A stretch of DNA of 64,000 nucleotides from Lophium mytilinum (lineage: Eukaryota), in assembly GCA_010093605.1 (NCBI GenBank), contig MU004188.1, positions 1,813,918 through 1,877,917 on the forward strand. The letters are read 5' to 3'. The translations under genes and the position numbers were made by a program. Under the pieces are notes generated by a model. The model was not told where the DNA came from. It did no database searches and saw only the letters and a list, made by a program, of their open reading frames with translations. Of this stretch, positions 43,526 through 64,000 are shown piece after piece. The first letter of the stretch is position 1; each line of letters starts with the position of its first letter.

Positions 43526-44139
43526 AGAATACTGCAGCCACCACGGCTGTGCTTTATGGTGGAGGCGAAAGATTGTGGTGTTGAAAGAGTCGAAGACGGC
43601 GAAGAAGTCACAAACAAGTGAGGTAGAAAGAACACACGTGGGGCGCCGATAGCGCGGTCAATCGAGGTGAATAGACGGAGGAGGATTTTGTCATCAGTGA
43701 AGTGGAATCGCAGCGGCCAATGCCTCAGTCGCCACCCCAGTGCGCCGCCGTCTGAGGTGGCTCGGCGAGTTTTCGGACTGCGCAGACGCCTTTTGTTCGC
43801 ATGTTCGAAAAGAGGTTGAGGCACCACACGCGGCGGCAAGAAGGTGTATGCAGATCTGTAACGAGATTTTGAACGAGAAGGAAAGAAGGGAGCCGAATTT
43901 TGGAAGTCGACGTGATTTTAATGTTATAGTAAGAAAGGAATTGGGATGGGCACTCGATCATTAGATCGACGTGTCTGGACAACACCACATAGCAATAGGA
44001 TATAGCAAGATGCTAACCAGAGATTCTTTAACAATCTGATCCGCCTGCGATGACCCACTAGTCTCGTCGGAATCATCGATCCTAGCAGCGACACCCTTCG
44101 TTTTCAGTCGAGCAATGTCCTAGCACTAGCCCAAGCGCC

Positions 44140-44996
44140 TCATTCACAGCCAACGCAACTCCTCTCCACCAGCTCCACGAAGCCGCTCAAAGGCACCTCA
44201 CCTCCATTCGCGGTATACTTATCTTCGCAAATGTAGCATACGTAGACTGTCTCGAATTTCTTCACATCCTTATCATATAGCTTGCTCATATGAACGAAGC
44301 AATCGCTCGCAAAATCTGGAATTTCGGCCATCATCGCCCGAAGTGGGCTGTTACCCTCTTGCTGGATAATGCTGGAGTGGTTGTCGCCGGCGATGCTAAC
44401 CATCATATCGCGCAGTCCACGATCGCTCGTGTGTGTAGATTCGTAGACTTCCCGGACTATGTCGGCGAACCAATCCGCCTTTCCCATATCGTGAAGGAAA
44501 GTTCTAGTTCGATTCTTGGCTATCGCCTTGAGCACCGTAATTTCGTATTTCGAAGCAATTGCGTAGACATTGACGTGGTGCAGCATTTGGGCACATGCCT
44601 TTGGTACTGGTGATGAGGTCTGAACTTCGGGAGTCGTGTAGGTAGAAGTGTACGCATATTCCAGCATCGACGCGACGGCGGCAGCGTTGTCGTGGCTGAG
44701 GTCAATCACACCCTCTGTGGCTTCCTAGATGGATTGTCGTCAGTGCCATCCTTGAGATCACAATGTTTACAAGCTTACCATGAAACCCAAGCTGCAGGCT
44801 TTGTCGAAGAACTTGATCTGGGGGCATAGAACCATCCGGTGAACCATGTAGGTGGTGTCGTTGCAGCGGACCTCGAGGTCGCTATATTTCGCAGAGTTCA
44901 TGTAACTTTCACGGTTAGCGAAAGCGCGATAGAAAGCAGGGCTTGGGTAGAAGCTTACCCTGATACGTCGAGCTGTATGAGCTTAGGAGCCGACAT
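44140..44996 (-). CDS. BTB/POZ domain protein (copy 2), 3 exons
   Basis: YMNSAKYSDLEVRCNDTTYMVHRMVLCPQIKFFDKACSLGFM|EATEGVIDLSHD...VYESTHTSDRGLRD. Intron positions match copy 1. Confidence 0.85.
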
Positions 44997-45348
44997 TTTT
45001 ACTACAGTAGCTAGATGAAGCCTTCCCTTATGTGAATGGTGACCGAGGTGAGGTGTTCTGCGGAGAGTGTAGAGGATTGCGTAGAAGAACCAGAAAGTAG
45101 AGAGGGCTGTTTGCGGCTAGCGTGCCTGAATTTTCGTGACCGCCAATGCACACAAGTTCATCCAGAGGAAAGTGCACTCAGTTAGAACCGTTTCACTGTA
45201 GGAACAAGCGATAGAGGATTCTATCAAGAGCAAATTGCTACTCCACTAATCAAAAGCATATACAGAAAAAACTTTCGCCTTCCTACATCTAAGGCTATAC
45301 TCCCTATAGCAACGATCACTGCCCTGCGCGCCGCCATCAGGTGATCGA

Positions 45349-46020
45349 TTAATGAGATAGCTGCCCGCGGACGGCACCCGATACGGCCAGGCTAGAATGC
45401 ACATCAGTGAAGAAAGCCTCTGGGTTTTCCTCGATCTGCTTGACGTGGAATCCATCCGCGGTGTCAACGCCCATAGCCAGGACACCAGTCTTGAACGGGC
45501 CTTTCAAGCAGCCCACACTGTTACGGACAGGTCCATCACCCATCGGATTCGGGAACGCAAGTCTGTGTGTATGTATCAGCATTTGCCTACTATCTGGGTG
45601 AGGCGATTGGAGGACATCCATACCTAGGTGGTCCAGCTTTGCCTTTGGGGCCTTGGTGGATGTGCGTGGCAGTCTTCGCAGGGCTCACGTACTCACCCTT
45701 GAAGCCCTTCAAAGTGATGTTGTAGCAAATGACATTGTCCTTGGAGTTGATGCCGTAGTTGTAGTAGCCAATGGCGCCCTTAAGACCGCCGGTAGCAACG
45801 CTGACATTGCTGAGGAAAGCTGTAAGTGCCTGCTCTCGGCTTCAGATACTGCGGGACCTTACCTTACGACCTGCTCGGGGGTCGCGATGACGTTATAGGT
45901 GGAGGTGAACTCGAAGACCTCCTTCTGGTGCTTGCCCTTCCAGGACTTGTCATGCTTGCCCCAGGTGGGGATTGCGGCGGCGGTGAGGGCCAAAGCGAAG
46001 GTGATCAAAGCGGTCTTCAT
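45349..46020 (-). CDS. Small secreted CHRD-domain protein, 3 exons
   Basis: Signal peptide MKTALITFALALTAAA, then ICYNITL...TATHIHQGPKGKAGPPR|LAFPNP...FFTDVHSSLAVSGAVRGQL. Confidence 0.8.
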
Positions 46021-47965
46021 TGTGATGATTGTAAAACTTGGGGGCAGTTCAAATGTGGAGAGGGTTGAGATAGTATTGCAAGAAAGTGCTCAAGTCATTT
46101 TAATGTAGAATGAATTTGAAGGATGGGATGAAGACGTTTTATAGTAAATCTTTGCCCTACAAACACTACTCTTCTCACAAGAGCATTACGCAACACGCCA
46201 CAAAGCTGCCCGTTCATTGCTCCTTAGCTCTCAGAGAGCCTTCTTTTAATAACGTAGGAAGGCTAAAGTCCAATTGAGAGGCTGGGTTGGCTACTTGGCG
46301 ACAGCGGAATATCTTGGCGGAAGGGCTGGAGAACTTGGCGGATCCGAATTGAGCGTCCACGTGCACTTGGAAGTGCTGAGATGGACTTTCAAATTAGAGG
46401 TCCAATCGGTAGGCTTCCGACAATATATTTTCGAAGAGGAAGATGAAGCTGGGCGAGGAATAGTGCGGGAATGTCTAGATCCGGTAGACTGTAGCCAAGA
46501 CCATCGTGGCGGAGCAGTTAGGTTAACTTCGCAGATCATCTGCATTAACCCTAAAGCTGCGAAGCTTGAGAGGAATCTGATGGCTAGACTTTCATTCGGA
46601 GCATTCAGTGACGATGGAGGCGCCTAAGGATTCTCTCGCCATCTGCCGGACGAAATATGAAAACCTTAGGTTGCTTGGAGAGTTGGCAAGATATCTCCAA
46701 GGGCTCAGTTCGCATATTGGCAAAACCGGAAGCTCCTTGGGCGTGATCTGGTGGGGTTGTGGCATGTCGAATGGTCCTGTCTCCTTGACTTAGGCGCGAA
46801 ACGAGTCGCGCGAAAAGGAAGATAAATGCGGACAAAAGCTCGACCAACATCTACTCTTTAACAACGAGAGGAAATGAACACCCTGGCTCATCCTGACTGG
46901 TCTTCTGTGCTTTCTGGCTTGATAGCTCGTTCGGGGCTTTATTTCCCCAAAACCTCATACAAGCGATGGAGCCCTTCACCGCCACTTTAGCAACCCACAT
47001 TAGAATTAGTAGACCCACGAATTCATCTCGACCGCGCCCTCGCACAATGGATGTATTTCAGACTTCATATAGACCTCAGACGTGAGAAATAACGAGGGAC
47101 AAAAGAAAAGGTTGGCATTCTCATGCTTCTTGGAGGACTAATATCCCGTGACTCTTCGCTCATACCTAGTCTTGAGTCACATCTGCGGAACTTGATAAAA
47201 TGAGGCAGAGAAAGAGGTTGAAAATGCGTTCGCGAGGGTTCAAGACTTCTGAGCGGTAGTGTGGTGGTCCCAAGGTTGAGTTCCCACGCCGTCGTGCACC
47301 CCAGAAGGACACCGCGGACTGCCACCTGGGCATGAGGTCATAGACAGCAAGACGCCTTTGCCCATGCCGCATGGAGCTGAAAGCCCAAAGTCCGAATGAG
47401 CAAGACCCTTGCATAAACTTACACGTTCTGGGGCCATATTGGAGCGTTTCTGACAGGTACCCGCCGCTGCTCACCTATCGAATCCACGAGCAACTGCAGG
47501 GCCGTCTGATGAGGGGACAGATCGGACTGGGCTTGCATCAGCCCTGCGCCCCACGCTGATCGGATTGGGCGCAGTCACGCGGCATCAAGTGCGAGTCGTG
47601 AACGAGCTGCTTGATCCAGCCGAATCACACAACAATGAGGTTGTCAACGGGAGTAACGAGAGTGTCGAGACGGCTCCGAAGAAGCTCGGCGAGAAAGAGG
47701 TGATCTCAGGTAAGTCGGCCGAGAAGGCCTATTTGCACTTGTCGTCTATTGGAGCAGGCATCTCACAGGGACGGATGCCGGAAGCGCCGGTCTTTTCGGT
47801 GGTGGGCATCGACGGCCATGACGCCTGCACCCCAGGGCTGCCTGCACCACTACGGTGGCTCTCTTTCTTCTGCCATGCTTCTGGACTGACCCAATCCACA
47901 AAGACCCCTCCACATTCTATAACCACCGCCCGTTAAAATCAAGTTATACGAAGCACCACCACATC

Positions 47966-48894
47966 ATGCCTATTCGCAATCCCTTCCGCAAAGCTCCCGG
48001 CGGCGTCGAGCTGCAAGAAGAGAATCAACGGCCGGGTGCGGACCGGGGTTTCCAGCAGACACCAGTCAACGGGACCAAGCCCGTCGAGATCAAAGAACCG
48101 ACCGAGTATAAACTCAGTGGTAAGTAAGACATGAACCGCGTCGCTATTACCTGCGCGGTTTAGTGGGGTGACGATAAAGAATTCACGCTTACGCTTCACA
48201 GAAATCAACGATAGTGGAGTTTATCTTCCGGTACAGTGCCCAAATCGTCCTCTATGTAACTCGAGGACACAATTAAGTGCCAGGAATGTATGCGCTGATA
48301 CATAGTTTCGCAGCCCTCGCCTCCCGAGAAGCCCAGCTTCTGGCACAGCAAATCCAATGCTTCAACCACATCGTCGAACCACCGGAGCATGCTAAGTGAG
48401 ACTGAGCCGTTCAGTATCTCAAGAGAGTCATTCGACTCCTACAGGAGATCCTTTGTATGTATAGGTCCCCTCTGCTTGGTTCTTATCCGCTTACACCAAC
48501 TGTACAGGACATCTCCGCCCGCTCCCCAATCCCCGATTGCACCGGTGAAGGGCGTCTCCGCCAAAGCCTCGACTCTCGTCGCAACCAATACATACCGCGG
48601 TCTTCGTTCCAGGACCGCCGCATCGACTGCCCCGATGCCACTGCCGAAGAAGGCTTCGAAGAAGTCGGGCTAAACGACGAGCCGAAGCCAGTCAAGAAGA
48701 GGGGTCTCTTCGCTCGCTTTGGCGACAACTCGGATGCGACGGTCAATACTAGCAACGAAAGGCCAGCATCGAGCCACCACTCGTTCCACTTCACAGGCCG
48801 CAAGAGGGGCCAAAGCGGCCAGGGCGCCGAGCTGAGAAGCATGGGCGACAAGCTTCCAAGTGTGCGCACTGATGTTCCGGTTGAGGCTCGCTGA
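47966..48894 (+). CDS. Small Pezizomycotina-type hypothetical protein, 4 exons including a 29-nt exon (48202-48230)
   Basis: MPIRNPFRK...EYKLS|EINDSGVYLP|PSPPEK...EPFSISRESFDSYRRSF|DISARSP...FEEVGLNDEPK. Canonical splice sites keep the frame. Confidence 0.75.
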
Positions 48895-49834
48895 GCGCAG
48901 CCAAATTTAATGATAATGCATATGTGGGGTTGGGTTTTCCCTTTGAGTCAAGAGGAGGGAACGGCGTTTTGGATCAATCTATACCTGTCGCTGCAGGACA
49001 TTTCTTGAGAGGTCACTTTTCCCAAAGTGCATTGCTATCGCTCCGCTGCATTCGGGGGATGCGATATCGGTACGTTTGTAGTTATACTTAATGAATGAAT
49101 TTTAATGGTTTGATGAGAAGGGGTTTCGATGATTTGAGTTGCGTCTATTGCTTCATAAACTGCATAGCGTGCATATCACTTTACTTGGATCCATTGATCA
49201 CAGAAAGCTACCGCAGAAATCTAGATCAATTGGCCACCAAATCTACATTTATTGTCTGCGTTGATCGTTCGACAAACATCACATCCTAAGGTCTTTTTCA
49301 TCAACCAAGAGTAGCAATTCGTACCAGTCGTGAATCTTAGTCGATAGTAAATCCTGATACAAGTAATCCAATATTGTGAAAGGCTGTACAATCCCACTAG
49401 ACAGAACACAGACATGGACGTTAAGTGAGACTCCATGACTGATAGAGAATTTTGGATAGCATCAGTCAACAGCGAAGCCGAGGCTTGAGGCAAACTTTTC
49501 AGTTTGATTCTGGCCTGATGATAGATGATCAAGAAGGTGTCTGATCCGTGGTTGGAGTGGAAGATCGGGAACTCTCGGATCCAATGGCGAATCTTGAGAA
49601 CATCCATCACGTGATAGTTTTCTTGCGGTGGGACAGTGATTCGGTAGCACTATGTCAAACACACGAAGAGCAGTCAGCTGAGCACATTGAGTTTGAATTT
49701 AAGCCTCAAGATGGCTGGTAAGGATATTGGATTTGCTCGTGGACGAAAATGAAGCTTGAAGCATCTAGATCGCAGCCCCCTCACTTAGTGACAGTCTAGT
49801 ATATATCATTTAATTTCACATAGGTTCTTCTAAT

Positions 49835-49939
49835 GGCAAGGTGGCCGAGTGGTTATGGCGTTACGTTTAGGTACGAGCATCCCTGCTCATTTACTATCCG
49901 TAATTCGAAAGAGCGTGGGTTCGATCCCCACCCTTGTCA
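49835..49939 (+). tRNA. tRNA-Leu(TAG) with a 26-nt intron (49872-49897)
   Basis: Acceptor stem GGCAAGG/CCTTGTC-A, A box TGGCCGAGTGG, anticodon stem TTACG/CGTAA around TT-TAG-G, variable arm, T arm GTGGG-TTCGATC-CCCAC and a downstream T run. Confidence 0.93.
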
Positions 49940-50312
49940 ATGCATTCTCTTTTTGCTTTTGGATAGTCCTGAGCTATGCTTCGCATCCTTTTTGCCCTTT
50001 GTTTCCTTGCTTGTGCTAGTTGAGACTTTCTTTATGGTGGTGGAAAGGCTGTGGGGTGGAGATTGGTAGGGTCCATGGATTCATGCGTTAAAATGCTGAT
50101 TAGCGAACAACTAGAACACCAAAAGGCAACCGTAATATTCGAGAGTACATTCAAGACATCAGTAGTCGAGACTTAAGGGCAGTGAGAGAGTCTATGCTCT
50201 ACTTAGAGAGTAGTAGCGCTACTGCGGGTAGCGAGTGGTAGAAAGAGCGTCTTATACCATCCCTGATATTCAACCAAAGCATCAAGCAACGCAAACAAAA
50301 CGCAACCCTGCA

Positions 50313-51305
50313 CTACTTCTTCACCCTAATCCCAAGCAGTTTTTCTGCATTCTTGTACGCAATCCCGTCGTATTCTGCCTGAGTGACCAACCCACTCGCC
50401 TTCAAATCCGCAAGAAAATTCCTTCCAGCCTCATTCTCAGAAAATGGATACCCGACCGAAAACATGATCCGATCCGCTGGCATGGTATTCACCAAGCAGG
50501 ACATCGGTGCCAACGAGAACATCCCGCTCGTCGTCACCCAGATGTTGTTGTACCATACCTCCCCAAAGTCCCGGCAAGGCTTCTCCCGCCACCACTGGGT
50601 GAGATTGACAATGCGATCGAGGACGAATGGGATCGTTTGGCCCATTTGACCGATGATGATCTTGAGACGGGGGAAGCGGTCGAACACTCCTGCGGCGAAG
50701 AGGCGGAGAACGCAGATTGCGACTTCAGAGTGTGCGCCGAGGTCGAAGGTGGCAATGTGGTGAGCGATGCTTTCTGGGTAGTTACCCCGGTAGTATTGAA
50801 GGTGTTGAGAGCTTGGGTAGTGGGATTGGATGTAGAGCGGTATGTCGAACTGCTCTGCGGCCGCAAAAATGGGCCGAAATTGTTCAGCGTCTAGGAACTC
50901 GCCGTTGTGGTGGTGATTTATCATTCCCCCAACGAATTTCAGCTTCGAGGTGCACCGAACGAGTTCATGTGCAGCCTCTGTTGGATTGTCGAGAGATAGG
51001 AGAGCGAAAGCTGAAAAGCGCGTAGGTTTGCTCAAGATGACGGAGTGGAGAGCGTCGTTCGCTTTGTGGCATGCAGTAGGTGGACAGTTCACAGGGACGT
51101 GAGAGAGGACCTGCATTGGGATGCTAGCAGCGCGCATATGCTGGATCCGTGAAGACCCGACATTTTTCAGTTTCTCGAGGTACTTCGGCTCAAGGAGGGC
51201 ATAGTAGGCGGAGTCTTGCGGCGAGACAGAGACTACGTCGCTGAAGATGATCTGCTCCTCTAGGGCGATTATTGGGAGAGGTGCGGCGTCCGAGACAGGC
51301 TTCAT
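50313..51305 (-). CDS. Amidohydrolase-2 family (aromatic-acid decarboxylase/ACMSD-like) protein with substituted metal ligands
   Basis: Intact 330-aa ORF: IIALEEQ, ANDAL, AAHELVRC, PLYIQSHYP, GVFDRFPRLKIIIGQMGQ, NIWVTTSGMF, DRIMFSVGYPF and IAYKNAEKLL. Confidence 0.85.
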   Translation of the reverse strand: MKPVSDAAPLPIIALEEQIIFSDVVSVSPQDSAYYALLEPKYLEKLKNVGSSRIQHMRAASIPMQVLSHVPVNCPPTACHKANDALHSVILSKPTRFSAFALLSLDNPTEAAHELVRCTSKLKFVGGMINHHHNGEFLDAEQFRPIFAAAEQFDIPLYIQSHYPSSQHLQYYRGNYPESIAHHIATFDLGAHSEVAICVLRLFAAGVFDRFPRLKIIIGQMGQTIPFVLDRIVNLTQWWREKPCRDFGEVWYNNIWVTTSGMFSLAPMSCLVNTMPADRIMFSVGYPFSENEAGRNFLADLKASGLVTQAEYDGIAYKNAEKLLGIRVKK

Positions 51306-52213
51306 GTACCGACGTGTGAGGATTCGGTGTAGTAGAAATAGACCGGGCTAATAATGAAGTAGAAACGACAGAGAAGATAGTTCTGATCCACGGCGTGGAC
51401 TTAGAGATATTGGCTAGTACATCTGCACGCATTAGGGCACGTATGACGCAAGAAGTGTCCCGAGGTCGTGCCTGACTCTTTCACTACGGCTTTAAAGTTC
51501 AACTCAGGCTTTACCCTTGATATTTACTGGAAAGGAAGATGAAGATGTGAAGCATGTGGATAATGATAGATTAACAATTGTGATAACTCACGGTCACTGC
51601 CCCGGACTCGCGGGCTGGTTGGAACCGAAATATCCAGTAGATCAGATAGAATGTGACACAAGACCAAAGGCTCCATTAGCTTGACAAAAGCTGTCTGGCC
51701 CTGCCAATATAGACAACATAGACCACTGCCTAAGTATTTAGAGCTGTCACCCCTTTAGAATACATTAGGCATACCCTTGGAAGGTCTCCCAACTGACTGA
51801 AAACTTGCAAGAGATGGGCCAAAGTGCACTGTTACTCAAGAGTAGCTTTATTTCTCTCTTAGAGTTGAGAGATCATTATGTCGAGGTGTAAGAGTGGAGA
51901 AGATCGAGCACGATGGGAGTTTGATTACTGCACGGACCCACACGAACCTAGATCGAACGGCAATCCCTCCGACCTCCCGTTGCTCTCTTCCCATCCCACT
52001 CTTCACTTATCCGTCGACTCGGCCCTATTCCCGTACTCAGCTAATTGGTGATGGACCCAAACCTAACTCGGAGTGTCCGCAATGGACGCCTTAGCCTCGA
52101 TCTCCTTCGCTCTTTGACTTTCAGTCCGACCCAACCTCCTTACAAATATAGAATTCGAAGTCTGCTGATATCGAGTACGTCCTATGTCAAACAACTCTTA
52201 TAGTGCAATTGGG

Positions 52214-54489
52214 ATGATGCATGATGATCATCCTGAAGCACCTCGAGCGAAACGGCAGAGAGTTTCCGCCTGCCAACGGTGCCGACATAGAAAGGTGCCC
52301 TAGCGATAAGCATTGCCTCACCCCTCAGTATAGATAACTGACAAGGCCTAGCAAAAATGTGATGATGAAAGACCCTGCAGCAACTGCGTCAGATCAGGGA
52401 AATCATGCAATGAGCCCGGGCCGCAGTCAGGATTAGAGTATGCCAACGTCCATTATCAACGCTCGCGTTTCATACAACTGACGCTACACATCCTAGATCT
52501 ATTCAGGTACTGACGGAAAAGCTGGCGCGATTGGAGGAAACTAATAGTCGACTTCAAAATGGAGAAAACTCCACTGTGCGCGCTTCAAGTGGCAGCATCC
52601 TGTCCCCAAGTGTATCGGAGTCGTCTCCAAAGCTCTTCGATGCAGATTCCGCGTCAAGCCAAATGAATCTGCCGTTTCAGCCGGATCTCGATCATAGCTT
52701 AGGCCGAAATGCCCCAGCTATAGGGCTTTTAGCGACCTTTTCACAATTACAAACGACTACAGTGTCCGAAGGCCGTCGAGAAATTCATGTTCTAGGACGC
52801 ATTGAGCCAGGATTGCCTCCGGACGTTATAAGCATGCTACTGAACACCTACTACACCAGAATCCACTGTCGATACCCCTTTCTCTACTTCCAAGAATTGC
52901 TAGACACGGTGCAGCAATGGCAAGAAGCTGCTGAAAGGCGAGCTCACGAGTATACTTCCACCGCATCTATTCCAACGAAGCGCCCAGAGCTTTGGAAAGG
53001 ATTCTTCGTCAACATGGTGCTCTCAATTGGCCTTCTGCTGCAAAAAGACGCTGGCTTCCAAAGCAACTTGTCTCATCATGCATACTATCGACTGGCAGTC
53101 ACACGGTTTCTATCACACGTTTTTGCACATACAGAGCGCCTGATTCATCTACAGGCGTACCTGCTTCTTGCAATGCATGCACTGCACAGCCCTTCTACGG
53201 AAAAGATCATCTCCGTTGCCTCCGCAACAATGCGATACTGTGTCATGGCCCACCTCCATCTCGCTGAGAGAGAGCCAGATCAGCCAGGCGCAGCCCGGGT
53301 ACGATCACAGATTAGAAGACGGGTCTTCTGGTCTGCCTACGCATTGGATCGAGTTGTCGGGACCATGTTCGACCTTCCATTCTCCGTGCCAGACGATCAG
53401 ATCACGGTTTCCATGTATGCCAACGTGGACGATAGTCAACTCTGGGAGTGGTGCAATTCAGCAAGCAGAGAGGACACTGAAGAGCCAGAATCGCTTCACA
53501 CTAGCGTCTCCTATGCAATGCATGTTGTTTATTGCAGACAGCTACAATCGGAGATACTTAACCACACTTTACATCGCGACTTCGAAACGAGATCTGATCA
53601 TCGACTTGACTGGCGCCAGCGCATCTTGGACGAGTTGGACCAATGGAAATCATCGTGCCATCGCTTCGCTGACGCAAAATCCAAGTCCTATACCAGTGGG
53701 CATTGGCTTGGAATGATCTACAACTTCAGCCTCGCGATACTCTTTCGGCCCACCAAATCGAGTGTCCGAGGGCCTGCTGGAGACTGGACCGTGAAGGCCT
53801 GCACACAAGCATGTCTGACTTTTCGAAAATTGCAGCGCGAAGGATCCATCTCCGAGCCTTGGATGGGGCTCATTGGTCAGTTCAAATGTGGGATAACTCT
53901 TCTGTATTGCTTCTTCGCTACCCCACCTGCATACCGAACCGATGCCTTCGATTCCCCAGACACTTTAGAGGCAATCCGCGCTTGCAGCAACATACTTTCC
54001 ATCATTGCGGAAAGATGGCCGCAATCACAATGTCTAAGAGACGTCTTTGACATCGTTGCGCGAGAGATACCGCTAGTAGATCGGCCGCCTATTCCGCGCA
54101 TGGGACATGCGGATTACGAAAGGGGAGCTTATTCTTCTCCGCAACACATGCGCGAAGACTCCGCGAAAGCACTGGAGGATAAAATGGCTGAGCTGGACCT
54201 CATCGTCGTCCACCGTGACACTCTTCGAATGCTAGATGAAATGATGCATGAAGACTTCCCGCGCCCTGCCGAGTCGGTGAGGTCAGAAGTCCTCTCGATT
54301 CAGACTACCGAACACCCAGTGAATCAACAGAACTCGTCTGGACAACCCGGACTCAATTTCCACGTCGTACCTGCACGCGACACACCGGTAGCGTCTCTGA
54401 GCCCATCTATCGACCACTTCATGGACCCTTCTTTGGAACTCAGCTCTACAATGCTTGGATTTCCAGGGGAATTCGAACCCGGTTGGTGA
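52214..54489 (+). CDS. Zn(II)2Cys6 transcription factor with a fungal-specific TF domain, 3 exons
   Basis: SACQRCRHRK|QKCDDERPCSNCVRSGKSC, IHCRYPFL and RRRVFWSAYALDR...DLPFSVPDDQI. Confidence 0.9.
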
Positions 54490-54546
54490 GATAGCAGTGC
54501 TTATACATTCCTAAAAGAACTATACGACTTTTCAACAGTGTCATTT

Positions 54547-56625
54547 CTACGATGTGGTCGCCTCCGTTCCTGTTATCTCGACCCCAGCAACCACATCAAA
54601 GAATGCGTCGGCCAGATATCCGCCGCGTGCTGTTGGTTTTCCGTACTTTTATAAAGTCAGCTCTCAGCTCCAAGCAGGTAGTCCTCTATTACTTACCTTG
54701 TCCGTTGCCATACCCGCTATAGCTGGCTTTGACACTTCACGCGTATACCCCGCGATGCCCATCTCCTTGAACCGAGAAGCAAACTGTCTGGCATGGAGAG
54801 AGAGACCTTGCGTGTTCCAGACTGGCTGAACCTACGCCGGGGGATGAGCATTTTTACCAGCTGTCATAACCAGCAACATTGCACATACCTGCCATACAAC
54901 GCCCATCTTGGCAATATCGGCGGGAAAACTCTCGAATTCTTCTTGCGTATAGCCCGCTTTCAAGAAGTCGTACGCACCCATGTAACCAAATCCGAAAAGA
55001 CGATTTGGAAAAACCTTGCGGACCTCGCTATGAAACTCGAACATATCCTTTTTGTCTAATCGTTACCAGATCGCATCAGCTTCGTACTGTTCGAGATATT
55101 GCGAGCCAGCTCGCTCAACAAGCCTGCAACGTGGATGGGTGTCTTACTCGGCTTGTCCTGTCGGCTCCACGTTACGTCTCCCAAAGGCGCTGCTAGTATC
55201 GCACGCTCGATAACAGCTTTTGTACTCCATTGCCACATGTACTGGCCCAATGGTGTCCGCGGGAGTTCCCAATCCCACACAATATCTTCTACGAGGATCC
55301 GCTTCGATATGTTTCTCCGTTCCATCAATGGTGTTATCTTTGCCGTTACCTCTGCTAGGTACGCGCTGAACTGCTCTGGCGTCGCTTTTTGCTTGACGGC
55401 ATCGTCGAAAGTCATAACACCTGCGGAAGCTTTCCATTCCTTTTTCACATTCAAATAGGATTTTCCAATGGACTTGCCTTCCTCAACTGCGAAATTGAAG
55501 GGCTTAATGAGTGTTGTTGCACCAAGCACGTATGGGTGGTCCCGCGGGTCAAGCACGCTTCGAGGAACACAAAAATTAGCAAGCGATCATGCTGCAGCTA
55601 GCCTCTGGACTGCATATCTCACCTCGTTATGAACTCTGCGTTGTCTGAGTCACATCGGCATAGAAGCATTGTATCCGCGCTTTATTCTCAAATTAGCTAC
55701 CCTGCACCAAGAGATCCTACTTTTTCTCAAACTGCGGAGGACCTACCCCATAACATCGAAAGTCATCCGGATTGTTGTAAGCCGCGAAAGATACTCGGAC
55801 GTGGGTACGATCGTTCTACCCTCACCGTTGGTGAACTTCTTCAATCCCATGGCCTATTCATGCTCATTAGCAAACGAAGACCAGAAACCAGGGAACTTCC
55901 TGAAACATACAAGATCATCAATATGTATCATGGCCACACCGGACTCCACGAAGCTCCTTGCAGCCTTCATACAACCAGTCAGGGTGCCGAACCCCATGTC
56001 AGCGTCGGCGACAATAGGCTGCAGATAGTCGATGCATTCCAGGCCCTCGCGGTCCTTCTCGTCAAATCGCATCCGAAGTTGTGTCTGACGCTGGTCTTGG
56101 AAGAGTTGCGTGTTGAAGATTCGCTTCACGACGCTTGGTACCAGATCCGCAGGATAATCAGCATGATCTTCTCCTGGCCACGAGGCCTGTGATATTCCAC
56201 ACATGGCACCTAAACCACTTAGAAATTGAGTATTCGGATCAACAAGATCGAATTCGTTTACCAGAAACATAGACTGTCTGCATGAACTTGGCTGTTTCTT
56301 TGACTATCATAGGATCCACCATTCCAAACGTCAGTTCATATGTGCCGTTGGCATTGTGGTCGTTCAGTATCTGCCACAACTTGCGCGCTTGAGTACTAGA
56401 CGAATATTCGACTTTGAAACCAATATTTCGGAGAGCAGCAATGGACTTGGCAGTATACGGACTATTGTTGTCATTAGTCTTTCGGTTGCATCGAGTTGAG
56501 ATCGGTTCTTGTTACCGCTTGATGCCCTTCTGCCGGTCAGTCTGCCACCAATTTTCGATTGATTTTACCTCCGCTTCAAAAGCTGCATTTTCGGCCTTCG
56601 TATCCGAGTATTTTGGCTGGGACAT
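54547..56625 (-). CDS. Divergent isocitrate-lyase-superfamily protein lacking the KKCGH catalytic motif, 9 exons
   Basis: FEAEVKSIENWW...IKR|PYTA, TVYVSG, DHADYP, PIVADADMGFG, GVAMIHIDDL|AMGLKKFTNGEGRTIVPTSEY, RCD, DPRDHPYVLGAT, WDWELPRTPLG and GGYLAD. Confidence 0.85.
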
Positions 56626-57225
56626 GTTTGAGGATCTTTAGTGTTTCGCTGAAAGCTTTAATGTCTTAGTCTCGACGTGCGGAGAGTCAAAACCCAGAAG
56701 GCATCTGGTTTCGAGGGGTACTACTCCTCTTAAACTACGTATACAAATCCTATCTTAGCTGTACAGGGTATCACTTGACGTATCGGCCACTAAGGTACGC
56801 ACGGTATTTTGCGGGGCGAGATTTATGGGCCCAAAGAATTCGTGGTAATGGCGATAGAGTGCGATAGGATTTTAGCAGCTACCGAAATCTTCGGCAAGCG
56901 GTCCGACGAGGCCGATGAGCATCAGGCGCCATTCAGCGAGTCAACCGCACCCTGACGTGGGCAAACTGTAATTCTACTACTGACGACTAGCTGCGGGACA
57001 CAAGTGTATCCGAAATTCTCTGGACGTCGTGTGATCCTCGATGCCAATGTTCTATCCATACTTTATACAGCCACGGGGAATCCAACCTCAGGTACTATAA
57101 CCCAAAGTCCTTGCGCTGTTTATTATTTGACATAAAAACTTTCGAATCCTTCTTTCTCAAATATATACTCTCTTCGTGTCCAATACACAGTCTATTGGAA
57201 TTTGTTCAATCGCTATTCGTCAAAG

Positions 57226-58716
57226 ATGGGTTCTTTCACCCAAGACGCGGAACTGCCTCACATCAATCTCCAACTCGGCTGGCCGACTCCGTCTCTTTTC
57301 GCAAGGGAGCAGCTATTAAAAGGTTCTCAAAGCATACTGTCCTCTCCGGCTGAAACGGCGCTCGCCCTGGTTTACGGGCCCCACCCCGGCTACATCCCTT
57401 TACGCAAAGAGGTCGCAAAATGGCTTAGTGAGATCTATTCTCCAGCTTCTGGCCCGATAGACTTTTCAAGAATCATAATCAGTAATGGCGCCTCATGCAA
57501 CCTCGCGAACATTCTTCAAAAGTTCGCTGACGCGACGTATACTCGACGAATTTTCATGGTAGAGCCGACTTACTTTTTGGCTTGCCCTATATTTGAAGAT
57601 GGAGGATTCAAGGGTAAGCTTCAAGGCATACCGGAGGATGCCGAAGAAGGCCTGGATATTGAGTATCTGAGAAGAGTGCTCCAAGAAGCAGAAAGCGAGC
57701 GAGCGAAGGCCGTTCCGAACCCCGACGACGACGTCCCGCGTCTCAAAACTGGTCCAAATTTTCCACACGTATACAAATATATCGTCTACATGGTGCCGAC
57801 TTATTCCAATCCGAGTGCAAAAACGATGTCTCTGCATCGAAGGAAGCAAGTAGTAGAGCTTGCGAGGGAATACGACGCTTTGGTAGTCACAGACGACGTC
57901 TATGACATGCTCAGTTGGCCTGCGGACCCGGCGTTGCCAGATGATGCCGTAGGTCCTATCCCACCTCGACTTGTAGACCTGGATCGAAGCATGCCTGGAC
58001 GCAGTGATTTCGGTAACACTGTCAGCAACGGCTCCTTCTCCAAGATCGTCGGGCCAGGTGTGCGTGTTGGCTGGGCGGAGAGTACAAAGGCGTTTGCTGA
58101 TTTACTGGGCGAAGTGTTCGTTTTTCCACCTTCTATGATTTTATAGTCCTACATCTCCTATACAATTCTAGCTAATATGATGCACAGAGGCTCTTCTTCT
58201 TCCGGCGGTAACCCTGGCCAATTGTCTTCTATGTTCGTCCACCACATGCTTGCAGCAGGGACACTACAAACACACATAAAGAATGAGCTCATCCCAACTT
58301 ACCGCAAGCGCTATTACGTTCTCATGTCTGCTATCCGCAAGGACCTTGTGCCATTGGGTATCGAAATAGAAGTCGGAGCTCCGTATCAGACATCCGACAG
58401 CTCTCAGACCACTTATACTGAGACAGTGGGCGGCTTTTTCACCTACCTGCGTCTTCCGCCCGGCATGCCTTTCGCAAGGGAGGTTGCCGCACATGCAATG
58501 GAGAAATACAATCTCAAGGTCGCCTTTGGACACATGTTCAAGGTCTGGGGAGACAATGAATCAACCACTAAGGCGGAGTCACCGCGGGGATTCGGTCACT
58601 GCGTACGGCTGTGCTGGGCGTGGCATACTGAGGAAGAGTTGATACAAGGAGTGAGAAGACTAGCGAGCGTGATATTGGAGATGCGAGAAGGTGCCGGTGC
58701 AAGCAACGGCATATGA
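57226..58716 (+). CDS. PLP-dependent aminotransferase class I/II (YER152C-like), 2 exons
   Basis: INLQLGWP, YGPHPGY, EPTYFLACPIFED, VPTYSNP, TDDVYD, GSFSKIVGPGVRVGW (PLP Lys) and RLCWAW. Confidence 0.9.
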
Positions 58717-59364
58717 GCTGGTTTGTGGCTGTTGAGAAACTGTGAGATCATACAGAATCGATCTCTTTCAACTTCAACGACATCATAAAGAAATCTGCAC
58801 CATTCGTTCAAGCCTTCCTATCAAGAATGGTCTGACGCGTTGTCTACGTTCGCCTCTAGACGAAGCATGATCAAACGCGGTTCGGAACACTTCCTCTTCC
58901 GCAGTCAGCAAAATTTGAAATAACGCAGCTACAAAACTCGGAACTGATGTGCGATTGACTTGCATCATGCGTGGGCAGGATAAACGTTGCTTCGCCGACA
59001 GCTCCGATTCTCTACTATGGCCATCGGCGCTTTCGGCGAGAATGCCAAGACCAGAAAGTGGATCGGGAGTGCTCCGAGTGAACCTCCCCCTTATCCCGCA
59101 GCGATGTAGTTCCAAGACCCACGACGGCGGGCATTAGGAGATGCCAAGCCTGGAATATCCCTGCTATCAGTGCTGAAGGTACTATACTCAACATGCATCG
59201 AGTAAGTAGATTTCAATCATCTCAAAGTCTTGGTGCTCCGTCCAAGATTCATATTTCTCTTTCTTTCTCCTGACTTATGAGTAATCCAAGTTGTGTCAAA
59301 CCTTGAGCTTTCCGTCTTTGATTTTCCTCAGCTGGCTTCCCGACCAGAACGTTGTTTCAACATC

Positions 59365-59526
59365 ATGGCAGCCACCACCCATGATAACAGGGATGTCAAG
59401 GACCTCACTGTCGTTGAAGGAGATGATGGCGTCTCTCAAAAAGAGATGGACTAGTCATGAAGCTTAACAAAGATGCTGACGAGGGTGCAGCTTATGCGGA
59501 CTACTTCCATGGGGAGGATGCATATA
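59365..59526 (+). pseudogene. Possible frameshifted 5' remnant of an MFS transporter gene, ending at the MITE
   Basis: MAATTHDNRDVKDLTVVEGDDGVSQK, a frameshift, then DGLVMKLNKDADEGAAYADYFHGEDAY(T). It resembles Dal5-type permease N-termini by eye only. Confidence 0.25.
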
Positions 59527-59741
59527 CAGTACTTAGCCATAAGTCAGGGCACACAGACTCGTTACAGCTTGGCTCCAGCTTGCCGACTCAACAGCACTGT
59601 TCGGGGTAGCCTGGTCGCTGAGCAGCCAGATAGTCAAGAGATAGTCTAATCTGTAGTGCTTGAACCTCGACATCGCGAGAATCTTGTGGGGGTCCCCAAG
59701 CAGTGGCGAACTAGTGTGCCCAGACTTATGGTCTGTCACTG
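59527..59741 (-). mobile_element. Best-preserved 215-bp Tc1/mariner-type MITE
   Basis: TA|CAGTACTTAGCCATAAGTCAGGGCACAC ... GTGTGCCCAGACTTATGGTCTGTCACTG|TA: ~28-bp imperfect TIRs, TA on both sides and no coding capacity. Confidence 0.8.
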
Positions 59742-60715
59742 TACGGTGTCCCGCATTATGGTGTCTGCAACACGATGTATATGGACCCTTTCCTTTTGCT
59801 TGTGGGTTCGATTCGCGCTGGGGAAGCCTTTGATTTTTTACTTTACGATAAGTGTAAAGGTGAATAAGTAGAGGACGAAGGAGTAGGATTGGTGCCTATA
59901 AAAGGGCAAACTTACCTAGCTCCCGAGCCTACCGGCTCTCGACCCCTAGATAAAGAAGTATGAATTCTTATGAGAGATCCGTACACTGTTGTTTGCCAAC
60001 ACACATTACATCACCAGAGAAATACGGATTATTATTACATTTTTTTTTCTCATTCGCTGACGATCTAGACAAGCGCGTCTACACAAACAACTAATCTACG
60101 CCATCTGCATAAGCCCGCACCACCCAGATCGCGTTATCAGGAGAGGAGATGGAATAACCAGGGTATTGTACACACACACGCACACACCGCTCTTGCAAAA
60201 CCAACTCTTCCGACATCAACGCAACATCAGTACTAGCCCAGGAAACGCCATCAAGGTTCCCATATAATTTACAGCCGTTGTAAAACCATCAGTTCCCAGC
60301 CCGCTGGTATGCAAGCCGGCAACCGTTTGTTGTTGGTATTGTTCTGCGTTTTCCGCAGAAACATGCTTCGATCTCGTTCCCCAGGCACACACCACCGGAT
60401 CGACCGACCCATCCGAGTAACACCGTGTCATCGATTAGGATTCCGGTATTCCGCGCCAAAATCAAGACAGATCCATATAACGCCGGCGCTTCGAAAAGGG
60501 TATCCCGGAAGAAGAATCCAGGAAAGAGAAACAGCGCTCGACAAAACCCCGGGTCCGGCTGCGCCCATGACATTTTCACCTGCCTGCATAAACCGAGCAG
60601 GGGCGAGGGTATGGAGCCGTCTTGTGAACCCAAAAACCAGGACCATGAAAACAAATAGGAAGAGCGAAAATAGCAAATGCAGAAATCTAAACCGAGGGGA
60701 AGTAGCTAGGGTAGG

Positions 60716-63700
60716 CTAAGCCGAAGCTTCGCCGGTAGGGTTGACGGCCGGTCGACCGCCACCGACAAGCTCAAGGATCTTGCCGGCGACGGCAGCTGGG
60801 TAGCCGCGTGAGAGACCCTCGTTGACGACGGCCATGGCGCTGTTGCGATCCTCGACGGCCATGAAGGCGCGAGTCATGGCTTCATAGGTGCTGGGTTCGC
60901 GCTTGTCGACGGACACGTTGTCGTAGATGGCCTTGGCCTTCTCAATGTTCTTGGTCAGTGCCCATCCGTGGATCAGAGAGTTGGCGATATAAGGCGTCAT
61001 GTCAACACCACGGCGCCTCATGTCTTGAAGAATGTTCTCGGTGTCGGCGATCTGGTGGTTGGCGACCATGGCTTCAAAGAGAGCTTGGTAGAGGCAGGCC
61101 TGAGGACGGATGCGGTGGTCGGCAAGGACGGTGTCGAAGAGTTTCCTGGCTCCGGCCATGTCGTGTAGAACGCATCCCTTGGCATGAATCAGGGACGAGT
61201 AGTGAACGGCTTCTGGAATACCACCAGACTGTCGGATCTGAGCAAGGATAGCCTCGGCGGCTTCCATATCCACAGGCTCAAGGGTAGCGTGGGTATCGAT
61301 GAGGAGCTTATAAGTGTGGGTCGTGGGCTCGATCTTCTTAGATCGCATGCGCTCGTAGTAAGCGAGAACCTTGCCGCGATCGCGCTTGGTGGTGAGGAAG
61401 AATTGCATCAAGCTGTGGTATGGCGCTGGCCTAGGCTTGTAGTTGGGCATGCCCTCCATCTCTTCGAAGAGTTCCTCGGCAAACTTCTCGTCGCTTACAC
61501 GGCAGAGAGCATTGACGATGGTTCCGTAGGTGACGCTGGTTGGGCGAATACCAAGGTTGCGCATTTCCGAGAAGTAGAAGAGGCAGTCATCAATACGTCG
61601 AGCCTTGCCAAGCTTGCCAATCAAGGCGTTGTACAAGAAAGAAGACGGTTCAACACCCTCGGTTTTAGCGCGGAGGAAGATCTTGACCGCCTCCGTGGCT
61701 TCGTCGAAGGTCTTGGTGGATTCCTTTAGGGTCGTGATGTAAAGTCCGAAGGTATTGGCAGAGGGTGCTGCACCCATCTCAAGCAAGTCCTGGTGGTATT
61801 GGGCAGCAAGACCACGTTGTCCGGTGGTCAAGCAAGCAGCGACCATGGCATCCAAGATGGTAACCCAGCCGTATCTCACGATTCTGTATTGAGGAAGCAG
61901 AGGGACGTCTTGCTTGGCAAGGGCTAGGATATCGTGAGCCAGATTGAGACGGTCTTCCTTAGCAGCAGCAGTGATGAGTTTGGCGTATGTGAAGAATCGA
62001 GGATGTCTACCGGCACGACGCATGTTCTTAAACTTCATCAAAGCCTCGTTCAAGTGTGACGATGATCGACCGTGAGTCTTTTCGAGCAAGTCAGTGACGG
62101 CGACGGATCCCTTGTTGTCGGTGGTAGCCGCATATGGATCGAAAGAGTCTTCATAGGCGGGAGTTGCAGGGATGGGTGCCGGGTGAGCGAAGTTTGGGTA
62201 CTGAGCTGGTGCGTAAACGGGTTCTGGTGCAGGGTGCTTGTAGCTATACCATCGATGCTGGAGGTCAGGACGATCAAGCTTCACGAGAACCTGCTCCACC
62301 AGCGAAGACGTTAGTTGCTCGGTAGGCGTACCACTGGAAGCGACAACTTCCAACAGATGAGCAAAGCGTGCTGCGTGGCCGACATCGATGACAGAAGTGT
62401 TGAGAATCATTCCTGATTGGACCTGCATGAGAAGCGTAAGATCTTTCCAGTGGAGCTGAGCAATTCCATCGGGACCCATTCCGGCGAGGAGATGGGCCGC
62501 AACTGGCGTAACGAGACCACCATTCTCAATCATGGTCCACATGAGTTCCATGGTAGCCCGTACGGGGAGGAAGATTGCTCGCTTTTCCATGAACTGACCA
62601 ATGACTTCAACGGCTTCATCGATCTGCTCAACAATCTCCATCTTCGCTTGATTAGACTGATTCTGGGAGTCTCGGATGCGGGAGAACATCTGTCGGCTCT
62701 GGCGGAGACCTTGTTCGGACTGACCACTACCAATAAGACCGATGGTGTGCATGGTAGTGAACTCGATGAACTGAGGCTTGGTGATGGAGAACTCCAAGAG
62801 CTTCCAGAACGACTCTGCGGCCTCGATGTTGCCATTACGGACGTGCATGGCGCCCATAGCCATAGCTACACGGGACAAGTCAGTATTATCAGGGAGTTCT
62901 TGGAAGGCCTTCGTAGCAATATCGATGTTGTTGGTGTCAGCAGCGCGGATGCTGATGGCTGCCATAGCGATAGTCCGAGCTTCAGCGCCCAGCTTTTCAG
63001 CCTGATCCAAAGCCTCGGTGAACGATAGGTTCCTCACAGCTTCTGGAACAAAGGCCTTTAGACCCACAATATCTCGTAGGGGTGCTGCCTCTGCCGGATC
63101 CAACAGAGCTTCTTCAATCTTGGATAAGAACTTTTGACCTCCTTCGGTTCTGCCGCAGATGACATATGCTTTGATCAAAGAGGCGTATACGTCGTTATCC
63201 TTGCGTGACAAGGAGATGTCTCCGTTATCATTCGCAATTGCCAAGGCCTTGTACTCGTCGTAGCACTCAACGGCACTCCGTAGATCACCGCACTTGCCGA
63301 AGGCGTGAATCATGGGGACGAACATGTCAGCACACGGAATAACATTTCTGCTTTCCATATGCGCAAAGATCCGGACCATATCCTCAACACGGTCAGACTC
63401 GGCGCAGGCTGATACTAGCACTCTGTACGTCATTTCGTCAAAAGAGCGGGACAACTTGTTCACTGTTGCAACATCGAACAGCTTCACGGCGTAGCTTAGG
63501 GAGTCGTCCTCGCCCAATATTTCGTATTCGGTCGCGTTGGAGTGAAGCATGAATCGGCCCTCCTCTTCCATACCGCCATATCGGGTTCTCTTTTCTTCTA
63601 ATTCCTGTTTCATAGACATCACCTCCAACGACCGGATTGATAGAACCTCAATCAGCGTAGAGTATGTCACGGTATCGGGAGAAACTCCGCGGCGGAGCAT

Positions 63701-64000
63701 GTTCGAGTAGACATCGAGAGCTTTGGGAACCACCTGGTGCTTGGACTTGGGAAGCTTGATGGCAGCCGAAAGAAGCGCATTGTAAGCAGATGTCGACGGC
63801 TTAACGCCAGTGCGGAGCATCGACTCGAAAACAGCTGGAATCTCGGCATAGTGGTGGCCTTCGGCGAGCTTGTTGAGCTGCTCGGTGTAAACATCAATCT
63901 CCGAAACACTGGTGGCTAGGCTTGAACCAGTACGGCTCAGGGGTAGAGAGGAGGCGACCTCGGACTCAACAGCAGGAGACTTCGCCACCACCTCCTCTAC
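60716..64000 (-). CDS. Pentatricopeptide-repeat protein, probably mitochondrial (Ppr5-like); 5' end outside the window
   Basis: Multiple PPR motifs (PSTSAYNALL, PDTVTYSTLI, PSSFLYNALIGKLGKARR, PTSVTYGTIVNALC, PTTHTYKLLI) in an open frame of more than 1090 aa. Confidence 0.88.
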   Translation of the reverse strand, partial: VEEVVAKSPAVESEVASSLPLSRTGSSLATSVSEIDVYTEQLNKLAEGHHYAEIPAVFESMLRTGVKPSTSAYNALLSAAIKLPKSKHQVVPKALDVYSNMLRRGVSPDTVTYSTLIEVLSIRSLEVMSMKQELEEKRTRYGGMEEEGRFMLHSNATEYEILGEDDSLSYAVKLFDVATVNKLSRSFDEMTYRVLVSACAESDRVEDMVRIFAHMESRNVIPCADMFVPMIHAFGKCGDLRSAVECYDEYKALAIANDNGDISLSRKDNDVYASLIKAYVICGRTEGGQKFLSKIEEALLDPAEAAPLRDIVGLKAFVPEAVRNLSFTEALDQAEKLGAEARTIAMAAISIRAADTNNIDIATKAFQELPDNTDLSRVAMAMGAMHVRNGNIEAAESFWKLLEFSITKPQFIEFTTMHTIGLIGSGQSEQGLRQSRQMFSRIRDSQNQSNQAKMEIVEQIDEAVEVIGQFMEKRAIFLPVRATMELMWTMIENGGLVTPVAAHLLAGMGPDGIAQLHWKDLTLLMQVQSGMILNTSVIDVGHAARFAHLLEVVASSGTPTEQLTSSLVEQVLVKLDRPDLQHRWYSYKHPAPEPVYAPAQYPNFAHPAPIPATPAYEDSFDPYAATTDNKGSVAVTDLLEKTHGRSSSHLNEALMKFKNMRRAGRHPRFFTYAKLITAAAKEDRLNLAHDILALAKQDVPLLPQYRIVRYGWVTILDAMVAACLTTGQRGLAAQYHQDLLEMGAAPSANTFGLYITTLKESTKTFDEATEAVKIFLRAKTEGVEPSSFLYNALIGKLGKARRIDDCLFYFSEMRNLGIRPTSVTYGTIVNALCRVSDEKFAEELFEEMEGMPNYKPRPAPYHSLMQFFLTTKRDRGKVLAYYERMRSKKIEPTTHTYKLLIDTHATLEPVDMEAAEAILAQIRQSGGIPEAVHYSSLIHAKGCVLHDMAGARKLFDTVLADHRIRPQACLYQALFEAMVANHQIADTENILQDMRRRGVDMTPYIANSLIHGWALTKNIEKAKAIYDNVSVDKREPSTYEAMTRAFMAVEDRNSAMAVVNEGLSRGYPAAVAGKILELVGGGRPAVNPTGEASA

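Follow-up and report, generated by a model that had tools for sequence, protein, structure and literature searches.

A conserved and apparently undescribed fungal gene module encoding a cysteine-less protein of the isocitrate lyase fold, with a predicted reduced form in Lophium mytilinum

A 64,000-nucleotide stretch of the genome of Lophium mytilinum, a dothideomycete (GenBank assembly GCA_010093605.1, contig MU004188.1, positions 1,813,918 to 1,877,917 of the forward strand) contained neighboring genes for a Zn2Cys6 transcription factor (TF), a Cys-less protein of the isocitrate lyase (ICL) family and a class I aminotransferase. The whole stretch is referred to as the window, and coordinates are counted from its first letter. 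The three genes form a module that is real, conserved and apparently undescribed, with an ICL-fold enzyme of putative new activity. On balance, the locus appears to be a reduced form, consisting of regulator, Cys-less ICL-fold enzyme and aminotransferase, of an old fungal catabolic cluster that earlier also would have included an anion-type importer of the major facilitator superfamily (MFS). The features of the module and the trace of its transporter are as follows:

52184-54489, plus strand: Zn2Cys6 TF gene of 729 codons (PF04082; Zn2Cys6 motif; spliced contigs)
54547-56625, minus strand: ICL-family gene of the non-canonical "KKFT" clade 1, nine exons, 527 aa (PF00463; exact mapping of database protein P0003)
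56626-57225, no strand: divergent promoter region of 600 bp common to the ICL-like gene and the aminotransferase gene (start-codon coordinates)
57226-58716, plus strand: class I (fold type I) aminotransferase gene, 472 aa (PF00155; match to database protein P0065)
59457-59531, plus strand: relic of an anion-type MFS transporter, first 25 codons (profile and tblastx)

The TF and ICL-like genes lay tail to tail with 57 bp between their stop codons, and a 600-bp gap separated the ICL-like ATG (56625) from the aminotransferase ATG (57226). Transcript evidence came from the sole public run covering the stretch (run X1), which was available as contigs only and whose "RNA" label is a guess; its contigs cannot rank expression, do not give strand or level, and drop rare forms.

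The ICL-like gene was modeled with nine exons on the minus strand (approximately 56515-56625, 56260-56460, 55911-56207, 55746-55853, 55625-55678, 55149-55559, 54886-55053, 54697-54828, and 54550-54645, with the stop codon at 54547-54549), and the model reproduced P0003 (527 aa) letter for letter, junction codons excepted. In protein searches, for which Lophium mytilinum gave the best matches, identity to P0003 was 99% for the ICL-like exon. Family membership was clear: PF00463 matched the exons, TIGR01346 scored 335 bits against a cut-off of 275.9, and the protein aligned over its full length with A. nidulans ICL (1DQU; E 2.2e-95). The Pfam family, the length and the acidic metal-site motifs were shared with fungal ICL and 2-methylisocitrate lyase; ADAD was retained and IHIED was replaced by IHIDD, so that the acidic positions of the predicted Mg2+ site were kept. 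In contrast, differences lay in the catalytic loop, in the SGW motif and in the stretches aligned to the succinate site. KKCGH of 1DQU corresponded to KKFTNG, VSGWQSS to VSGAMCG (SGW to SGA), WMES to WSRQ, YNLSPSFNW to FGYMGAYDF, and FITLAG to VQPVWN (the ITLAG region reads VQPVWNTQG). The ICL literature assigns the catalytic cysteine, succinate binding and the Mg2+ site to these motifs of canonical ICL.

The substitutions were not peculiar to Lophium. None of 62 ICL-like homologues contained K[KR]CGH. Across all 16 aligned homologues, from a Schizosaccharomyces pombe protein to those of filamentous ascomycetes, the loop K-K/R-F-T was invariant, as were K208, F210, T211, G213, G215, R216, T217, and the acidic motifs. 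The invariance of acidic positions, loop and pocket pattern fits selection on an active site. Databases name the homologues isocitrate lyase or mitochondrial 2-methylisocitrate lyase, and the Pfam and TIGR01346 matches above their cut-offs agree with those names. Nevertheless, a protein with no cysteine proton donor would be neither enzyme, and with the cysteine-bearing loop missing from every homologue, all succinate-site-aligned residues replaced, and a family that forms its own clade (below), the database names are very improbable descriptions of its activity.

A search of 1.84 billion protein representatives returned 125 proteins with E ≤ 1e-30. Sorted by catalytic loop, the best 150 matches comprised 83 with K[KRT]CGH, 13 with KKFT, 12 with other loops and 42 without a recognizable loop, many of the last being short fragments. 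The FastTree phylogeny of the ICL family included 68 rows: 59 representatives of 400-650 residues, shorter and longer ones being excluded, and nine named sequences. The KKFT proteins formed a single clade of 13 rows (support 100). With the tree rooted at its midpoint for drawing purposes only, KKCGH-type loops were carried by 40 of the 42 rows on one side of the root and were absent from the 26 rows on the other, where the KKFT proteins lie. The family is a fully supported clade apart from 40 KKCGH-bearing representatives.

The sister of the KKFT clade (support 97) was composed of 10 non-canonical sequences with degenerate loops (P0319, P0323, P0330, P0332, P0352, P0389, P0395, P0396, P0400, and P0403), for example KRFDHA and KKTGAK. 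Judging from the loops of this sister group, the diversity of Cys-less ICL paralogues extends beyond the KKFT clade. Within the KKFT proteins, two clades were distinguished. Clade 1 (loop KKFTNGEGR, motif WSRQDKP) contained the window protein, metagenome loci L017/L018 and most of the named matches. Clade 2 (loop KKFTVGQGR, motif WARMDxP) contained the S. pombe protein (P0061) and 22 of 24 metagenome loci.

Linkage of the module genes was examined in named fungi and in metagenomes. In total, 736 aminotransferase homologues were found and the best 120 were compared with the 62 ICL-like homologues. Twenty of the 62 shared a contig with an aminotransferase homologue among those best 120 of 736, as recognized by exactly equal longest-contig sizes, which for megabase contigs means the same contig and not adjacency. 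Eleven of the 20 shared contigs were smaller than 250 kb. The fungi concerned included: Colletotrichum karsti, C. orchidophilum, C. godetiae, C. acutatum, four Xylariales, Cadophora, Karstenula, Lecanosticta, Meristemomyces, Cirrosporium, Neonectria punicea, and Geosmithia morbida. The ICL-like and aminotransferase genes had consecutive locus tags in Meristemomyces (LTR85_000477/000476) and Cirrosporium (M1834_006901/006900).

Scanning metagenome contigs yielded 24 loci with an ICL-like gene, which were annotated by tblastn and Pfam; because of near-duplicates (such as L002/L003, L005/L006/L007, L012/L013, and L017/L018) they represent roughly ten independent organisms. An orthologous MFS transporter was present in 17 of these loci, the aminotransferase in 15, a class I glutamine amidotransferase (GATase)-like gene in 14, a TF homologue adjoining the ICL-like gene in 10, and a fused hydantoinase A/B (oxoprolinase-like) gene in nine. 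The nine loci without an aminotransferase were contigs of 1.2-7.4 kb that ended short of its expected place. Eleven loci had 5 kb or more of sequence flanking the ICL-like gene on each side; the aminotransferase was found in all 11 of them, and the TF and the MFS gene were found in nine each.

Gene order was variable. The order HYD- AT+ GAT- MFS+ ICL+ TF- (HYD, hydantoinase; AT, aminotransferase; GAT, GATase-like; signs denote strands) was observed in L002/L003/L011 and in part in L004 and L015; other loci had TF- MFS- ICL+ GAT- AT- HYD+, MFS- ICL+ GAT+ AT- HYD+, or other arrangements. Cluster content was therefore retained across loci despite rearranged order, the form of linkage expected of a fungal gene cluster. 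L003 was close to Alternaria, its GATase-like protein being 90% identical to an Alternaria protein. Three GATase-like matches lay on contigs of aminotransferase matches: Neocucurbitaria (neighboring tags Nn.00g000350/360), Lophiotrema nucula, and one JGI contig. Altogether, a full paralogous (clade 2) cluster of six genes was recovered from metagenomic and Pleosporales DNA: an anion-type MFS transporter, an ICL-like protein, a gamma-glutamyl-peptidase-like hydrolase, an aminotransferase, a fused hydantoinase/oxoprolinase, and a TF.

The initial annotation had proposed a module that would fall if its genes were unlinked in other genomes; the ICL-like gene, the aminotransferase and the TF are linked in other fungi. 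It had overlooked that, by comparison with these loci, the locus in the window appears to be the cut-down version of a larger, conserved type of cluster with hydantoinase/oxoprolinase-like and gamma-glutamyl-peptidase-like genes. A chance neighborhood without functional link has one argument in its favor, the amidohydrolase gene beside the module, which is indeed an unrelated neighbor. For the TF, the ICL-like gene and the aminotransferase, this explanation is already contradicted by linkage that recurs in many genomes with rearranged order and by parallel duplication of the ICL-like/aminotransferase pair, and can hardly be credited.

The duplication was evident from the aminotransferase. Its gene has a single intron (58116-58187), confirmed by a spliced run X1 contig, and the model matched P0065 at 100%. 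PF00155 and the lysine motif that binds pyridoxal phosphate identify it as a class I aminotransferase; SFSK, NP, and DDxY aligned with 1WST, and presumably have the roles known for these motifs. It grouped with multiple-substrate, 2-aminoadipate, kynurenine and MppQ enzymes, with the lysine motif retained. The FastTree phylogeny of 32 aminotransferases was built from 16 named partners of ICL-like proteins, 10 sequences from the metagenome loci and six without partner information; the other listed matches were not used. Two clades resulted, each with support of 100. One of them held all 14 partners of clade 1 ICL-like proteins, and the other held all 12 partners of clade 2 proteins. Since both clades contained Sordariomycetes as well as Dothideomycetes, and Geosmithia morbida had one copy in each, the split reflects paralogy and not taxonomy. 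The ICL-like and aminotransferase genes were thus duplicated together, and this is an argument for a functional connection between the two proteins.

Mytilinidion resinicola encoded ICL-like proteins of both clades: P0004 of clade 1 (85% identical to the Lophium protein, partial) and P0055 of clade 2 (49%). Lophium may likewise hold a full clade 2 cluster elsewhere in its genome.

The closest counterpart of the window was the L017/L018 locus, which is of clade 1 and has the arrangement AT- ICL+ TF-, with order and strands as in the window. Its TF was 44% identical to the window TF (E 3e-169), and its aminotransferase was nearest to that of Cadophora. When positions 44000-64000 of the window were compared with L017 by tblastx, the match ran only over the TF, the ICL-like gene and the aminotransferase, with isolated short matches elsewhere. 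A second, distantly related aminotransferase open reading frame (ORF; PF00155) was present at L017 1143-2474 (plus strand), approximately 6 kb from the module in L017/L018.

A search of prokaryote contigs gave 319 pattern matches, among which a single relative was found, L025 (NYXK01000116.1, 37342-55334), titled as a Deltaproteobacteria bacterium metagenome-assembled genome. L025 carries intron-bearing fungal genes and is 99.9% identical to L017 over 17,993 bases; L017, L018 and L025 are the same sequence. The contig is probably fungal and mis-binned into a bacterial genome, and a bacterial occurrence of the module was dismissed.

The initial annotation had also suspected a lost transporter. 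Comparison of positions 58717-60720 by tblastx detected matches to the N-terminal exon of the cluster MFS gene in nine loci, at 50-68% identity over 17-26 residues. The relic reads, from an ATG at 59457, MKLNKDADEGAAYADYFHGEDAYTV. A profile built by coordinates from seven loci, with the window excluded, recovered it at E 4.4e-7; the runner-up among the 2404 six-frame pieces had an E of 0.55. The transporter body was not found in the window by tblastn at E <0.01. The suspicion was borne out by this relic of the MFS N-terminus, and the transporter belonged to the module: the clade 1 module once had the same MFS gene, which was destroyed in Lophium.

The likeness to the MFS protein ends at 59531, and an inverted repeat begins at 59537, 5 bp after the end of the relic. 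This repeat, a 195-bp element resembling a miniature inverted-repeat transposable element (MITE), has arms of 36 nt that are 78% complementary and 123 nt apart. The arm sequence matched the window three times against 0.03 expected; two of the matches were the element's own arms and the third was partial. The element had raised depth and loose ends in run X1, and no clear target-site duplication was seen. In the same run, a GT..AG joint (59201/59491; 289 bases skipped) led from beyond the aminotransferase gene into the MFS relic.

The function proposed for the full clusters follows from the types of their genes. The cluster MFS protein is of the D-galactonate/anion:cation symporter type (TIGR00893, E 1e-45, below cut-off). 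The best solved relative of the hydantoinase is N-methylhydantoinase (E 5.5e-62), and it matched the caprolactamase A and B models at 155 and 125 bits against a cut-off of 1000. Among solved structures, the GATase-like protein is closest to gamma-glutamyl peptidase 1 of plants, and its CFGHQ and QGH..E motifs are retained in the alignment. In the proposed sequence of events, the MFS protein would import an anionic nitrogen compound. The ATP-dependent hydantoinase/oxoprolinase-like enzyme would open its lactam form, and the gamma-glutamyl-peptidase-like Cys-His-Glu hydrolase would strip an amide or gamma-glutamyl group, the two together yielding an acidic amino acid. The aminotransferase would turn this amino acid into a 2-oxo acid. 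The ICL-like protein would then bind the 2-oxo acid by its retained Mg2+ site and break the bond beta to the keto group by decarboxylation, retro-aldol or hydrolytic C-X cleavage, through a metal-stabilized enolate and without a cysteine proton donor. The Lophium locus would retain just these two final steps, together with the regulator. Several candidate substrates were considered, none of which gained support: 2-aminoadipate or its lactam, substituted glutamates and pyroglutamates, 2-oxoglutaramate lactam, phosphonoalanine, cysteate, and carboxyalkyl-hydantoins.

The same genes could in principle serve biosynthesis, with the ICL-fold enzyme forming a C-C bond to give an unusual 2-oxo acid, the aminotransferase making a non-proteinogenic amino acid from it and the MFS protein exporting the product. 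Transamination is reversible, MFS proteins can export, and MppQ, a biosynthetic enzyme, is the top NCBIfam match of the aminotransferase, although its 94 bits fall far short of the cut-off of 540. The anion:cation symporter type of the MFS protein and the hydrolytic or ATP-dependent ring-opening types of the extra full-cluster genes oppose this direction, and Pfam annotation of the loci revealed no synthase, nonribosomal peptide synthetase or polyketide synthase conserved beside the cluster. A biosynthetic module is accordingly rather unlikely.

Beyond the Lophium locus and its catabolic interpretation, we tentatively propose that the KKFT proteins represent a new activity of the ICL/phosphoenolpyruvate (PEP) mutase superfamily, and that with the co-duplicated aminotransferase they constitute an old pathway, spanning fission yeast and filamentous ascomycetes, by which an acidic nitrogen compound of lactam, amide or gamma-glutamyl type would be used. 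Genes labeled isocitrate or methylisocitrate lyase, including that of S. pombe P0061, would then be misnamed. If this is true, many fungal genes with such names are mis-annotated, with effects on metabolic models, and the ICL fold gains a reaction type. The occurrence of the cluster in wheat-, barley- and other crop-associated Pleosporales, as seen in the GATase-like matches, points to a nutrient or a plant- or soil-derived compound. With one regulator, one importer and four enzymes, the cluster also offers an experimental handle.

Cys-less members of the PEP mutase/ICL superfamily include the phosphonopyruvate hydrolase PalA, which has a partner aminotransferase, PalB, and oxaloacetate decarboxylase. 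The chemistry of PalA and oxaloacetate decarboxylase proceeds through a Mg2+-bound pyruvate enolate and requires no cysteine. The PalA/PalB system combines an aminotransferase, a superfamily enzyme, a transporter and a regulator by the same logic as the KKFT cluster. PalA and oxaloacetate decarboxylase belong to the PEP_mutase branch, whereas the KKFT protein belongs to the ICL branch. The final reaction proposed for it would resemble those of these hydrolase and decarboxylase members, and the likeness is a resemblance only.

Two described pathways share parts of the cluster. The caprolactam pathway of Pseudomonas jessenii is reported to use an ATP-dependent lactamase of the hydantoinase/oxoprolinase family followed by an aminotransferase (PMC6061476). 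The order of lactamase and then aminotransferase is shared with the full cluster, but the pathway is bacterial and is not known to include an ICL-like enzyme, and the hydantoinase gene is absent from the Lophium window. The TD-BX tyrosine-degradation clusters of black yeasts contain the genes "iclBX" and "mfsBX" (PMC3914699). The "iclBX"/"mfsBX" pair is the nearest lead in the literature: by its description, TD-BX likewise clusters an ICL-family gene, an MFS gene and a Zn2Cys6 regulator in Dothideomycetes and Eurotiomycetes. Unlike TD-BX, the loci studied here had no hppD-like gene by Pfam annotation. The initial annotation had not recognized the genes as a characterized cluster, and no publication on the cluster or the KKFT clade was found in a search that did not extend to supplementary tables.

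Several observations weigh against the catabolic, new-activity interpretation. Besides the limit of the contig-size measure for megabase contigs, the DNA context of clade 1 beyond the ICL-like/aminotransferase pair comes from two organisms only, the window and the L017 type. Neither the hydantoinase nor the GATase-like gene left a relic in the window detectable by tblastn at E <0.01, and a 60-sequence profile of the GATase-like protein likewise found none (best E 1.3). No conserved or shared regulatory motif was demonstrable in the 600-bp promoter or the intergenic regions of the loci. The catabolic direction, the substrate class, the reaction type and control by the TF are all predictions from sequence. 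In addition, no spliced ICL-like joint was present among the run X1 contigs, which drop rare forms, and the ICL-like protein could be non-catalytic.

Several candidate signals in the same regions were discarded. A single weak tblastx match of the window to the hydantoinase region of L004 (E 0.045) was taken as noise, as it was not repeated in close relatives. CGG-N10-CCG occurred in 11 of 20 intergenic regions and was dropped as a shared motif, its count having no background comparison. The most shared 8-mer of the intergenic regions was dropped because it came from around the hydantoinase start codon.

The last two of the opposing points bear on whether the ICL-like protein is a pseudoenzyme that binds, senses or scaffolds, with the other genes doing the chemistry. 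One run X1 contig, spanning 52497-59201, was colinear with the genome over 52497-58115, through the shared promoter and each of the eight introns of the ICL-like gene; in this contig the plus-strand TF and aminotransferase introns were spliced out and the ICL-like introns were kept. Spliced ICL-like mRNA is not the main form in the run X1 sample. The colinear contig may reflect read-through on the plus strand, or overlapping transcripts, running antisense to the ICL-like gene. This missing splice form, together with the loss of the catalytic cysteine and the succinate-site-aligned residues and the still more degenerate loops of the sister group, is what a pseudoenzyme would explain. Invariance across all 16 aligned sequences nonetheless extends to the acidic residues of the metal site, the loop K-K-F-T-x-G-x-G-R-T and many positions of the pocket, and a pseudoenzyme is considered unlikely.

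The TF gene (ATG at 52184, stop at 54489) has introns at approximately 52293-52349 and 52438-52496, both within the DNA-binding region and both seen as GT..AG joints in run X1 contigs (52292/52350 and 52437/52497). It has both features of a Zn2Cys6 TF, the six-Cys motif (Cx2Cx6C...Cx2Cx6-8C, residues 30-56 of the spliced reading) and the Fungal_trans domain (PF04082, E 2.4e-17). Zn_clus was also detected in the TF homologues of L003 and L011.

The features beside the module are as follows:

49835-49939, plus strand: intron-bearing tRNA-Leu(TAG) (Rfam RF00005, 48 bits; ARAGORN with introns permitted)
50313-51305 (coding sequence; ORF 50313-51347), minus strand: Amidohydro_2 gene, ACMSD/gamma-resorcylate-decarboxylase-like (PF04909, E 1.8e-26)
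59537-59731, no strand: MITE-like inverted-repeat element (inverted arms)
60719-64000, minus strand: pentatricopeptide repeat (PPR) gene (PF13041, PF13812 and others)

With these, every feature of the layout first described (tRNA, amidohydrolase, TF, ICL-like gene, 600-bp promoter, aminotransferase, and MITE-like repeat) was found in its place.

The amidohydrolase had been included in the initial annotation as the least certain member of the module, and it does not belong there. No homologue occurred in any of the 24 metagenome loci, and the gene was not syntenic with L017. Its ATG is at 51303-51305 and its stop codon at 50313-50315 (minus strand). The closest solved relatives were 3NUR, gamma-resorcylate decarboxylase, LigW, and 2,3-dihydroxybenzoate decarboxylases, with matches of 117-153 bits to 2DVT and 3NUR. 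The fold is shared with this ACMSD/gamma-resorcylate decarboxylase branch, but the aligned metal and catalytic residues are not. In the 2DVT and 3NUR alignments, Gln stands at the positions of 2DVT His164 and His218 and Gly at that of Asp287 (numbering counted from the alignment), leaving the protein without the metal-ligand and catalytic His/Asp residues of ACMSD-type Amidohydro_2 decarboxylases. The first motif reads EEQ, presumably the counterpart of Glu8/His10. The name pseudo-amidohydrolase, given before these alignments, is fair in view of Gln/Gln/Gly in place of His/His/Asp. The lost residues and the absence from all related loci mark the amidohydrolase as a bystander.

The amidohydrolase gene was transcribed and spliced in run X1, with leader introns at 51423-51591 or 51490-51591 and at 51726-51774. 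The leader (51423-51885, minus strand) has an alternative donor (joints 51422/51592 and 51489/51592) and reaches to approximately 300 bp from the TF start codon.

Default ARAGORN settings missed the tRNA at 49835-49939, and settings that permit introns called it as tRNA-Leu(TAG). Upstream of the tRNA, two ORF pieces (43214-43480 and 44770-44982, minus strand) had weak BTB/POZ domain matches. At the other end, the ORF at 60719-64000 (minus strand) was open through the window end, and its run X1 contig had a mean depth of approximately 980, far above that of the contigs over the module.

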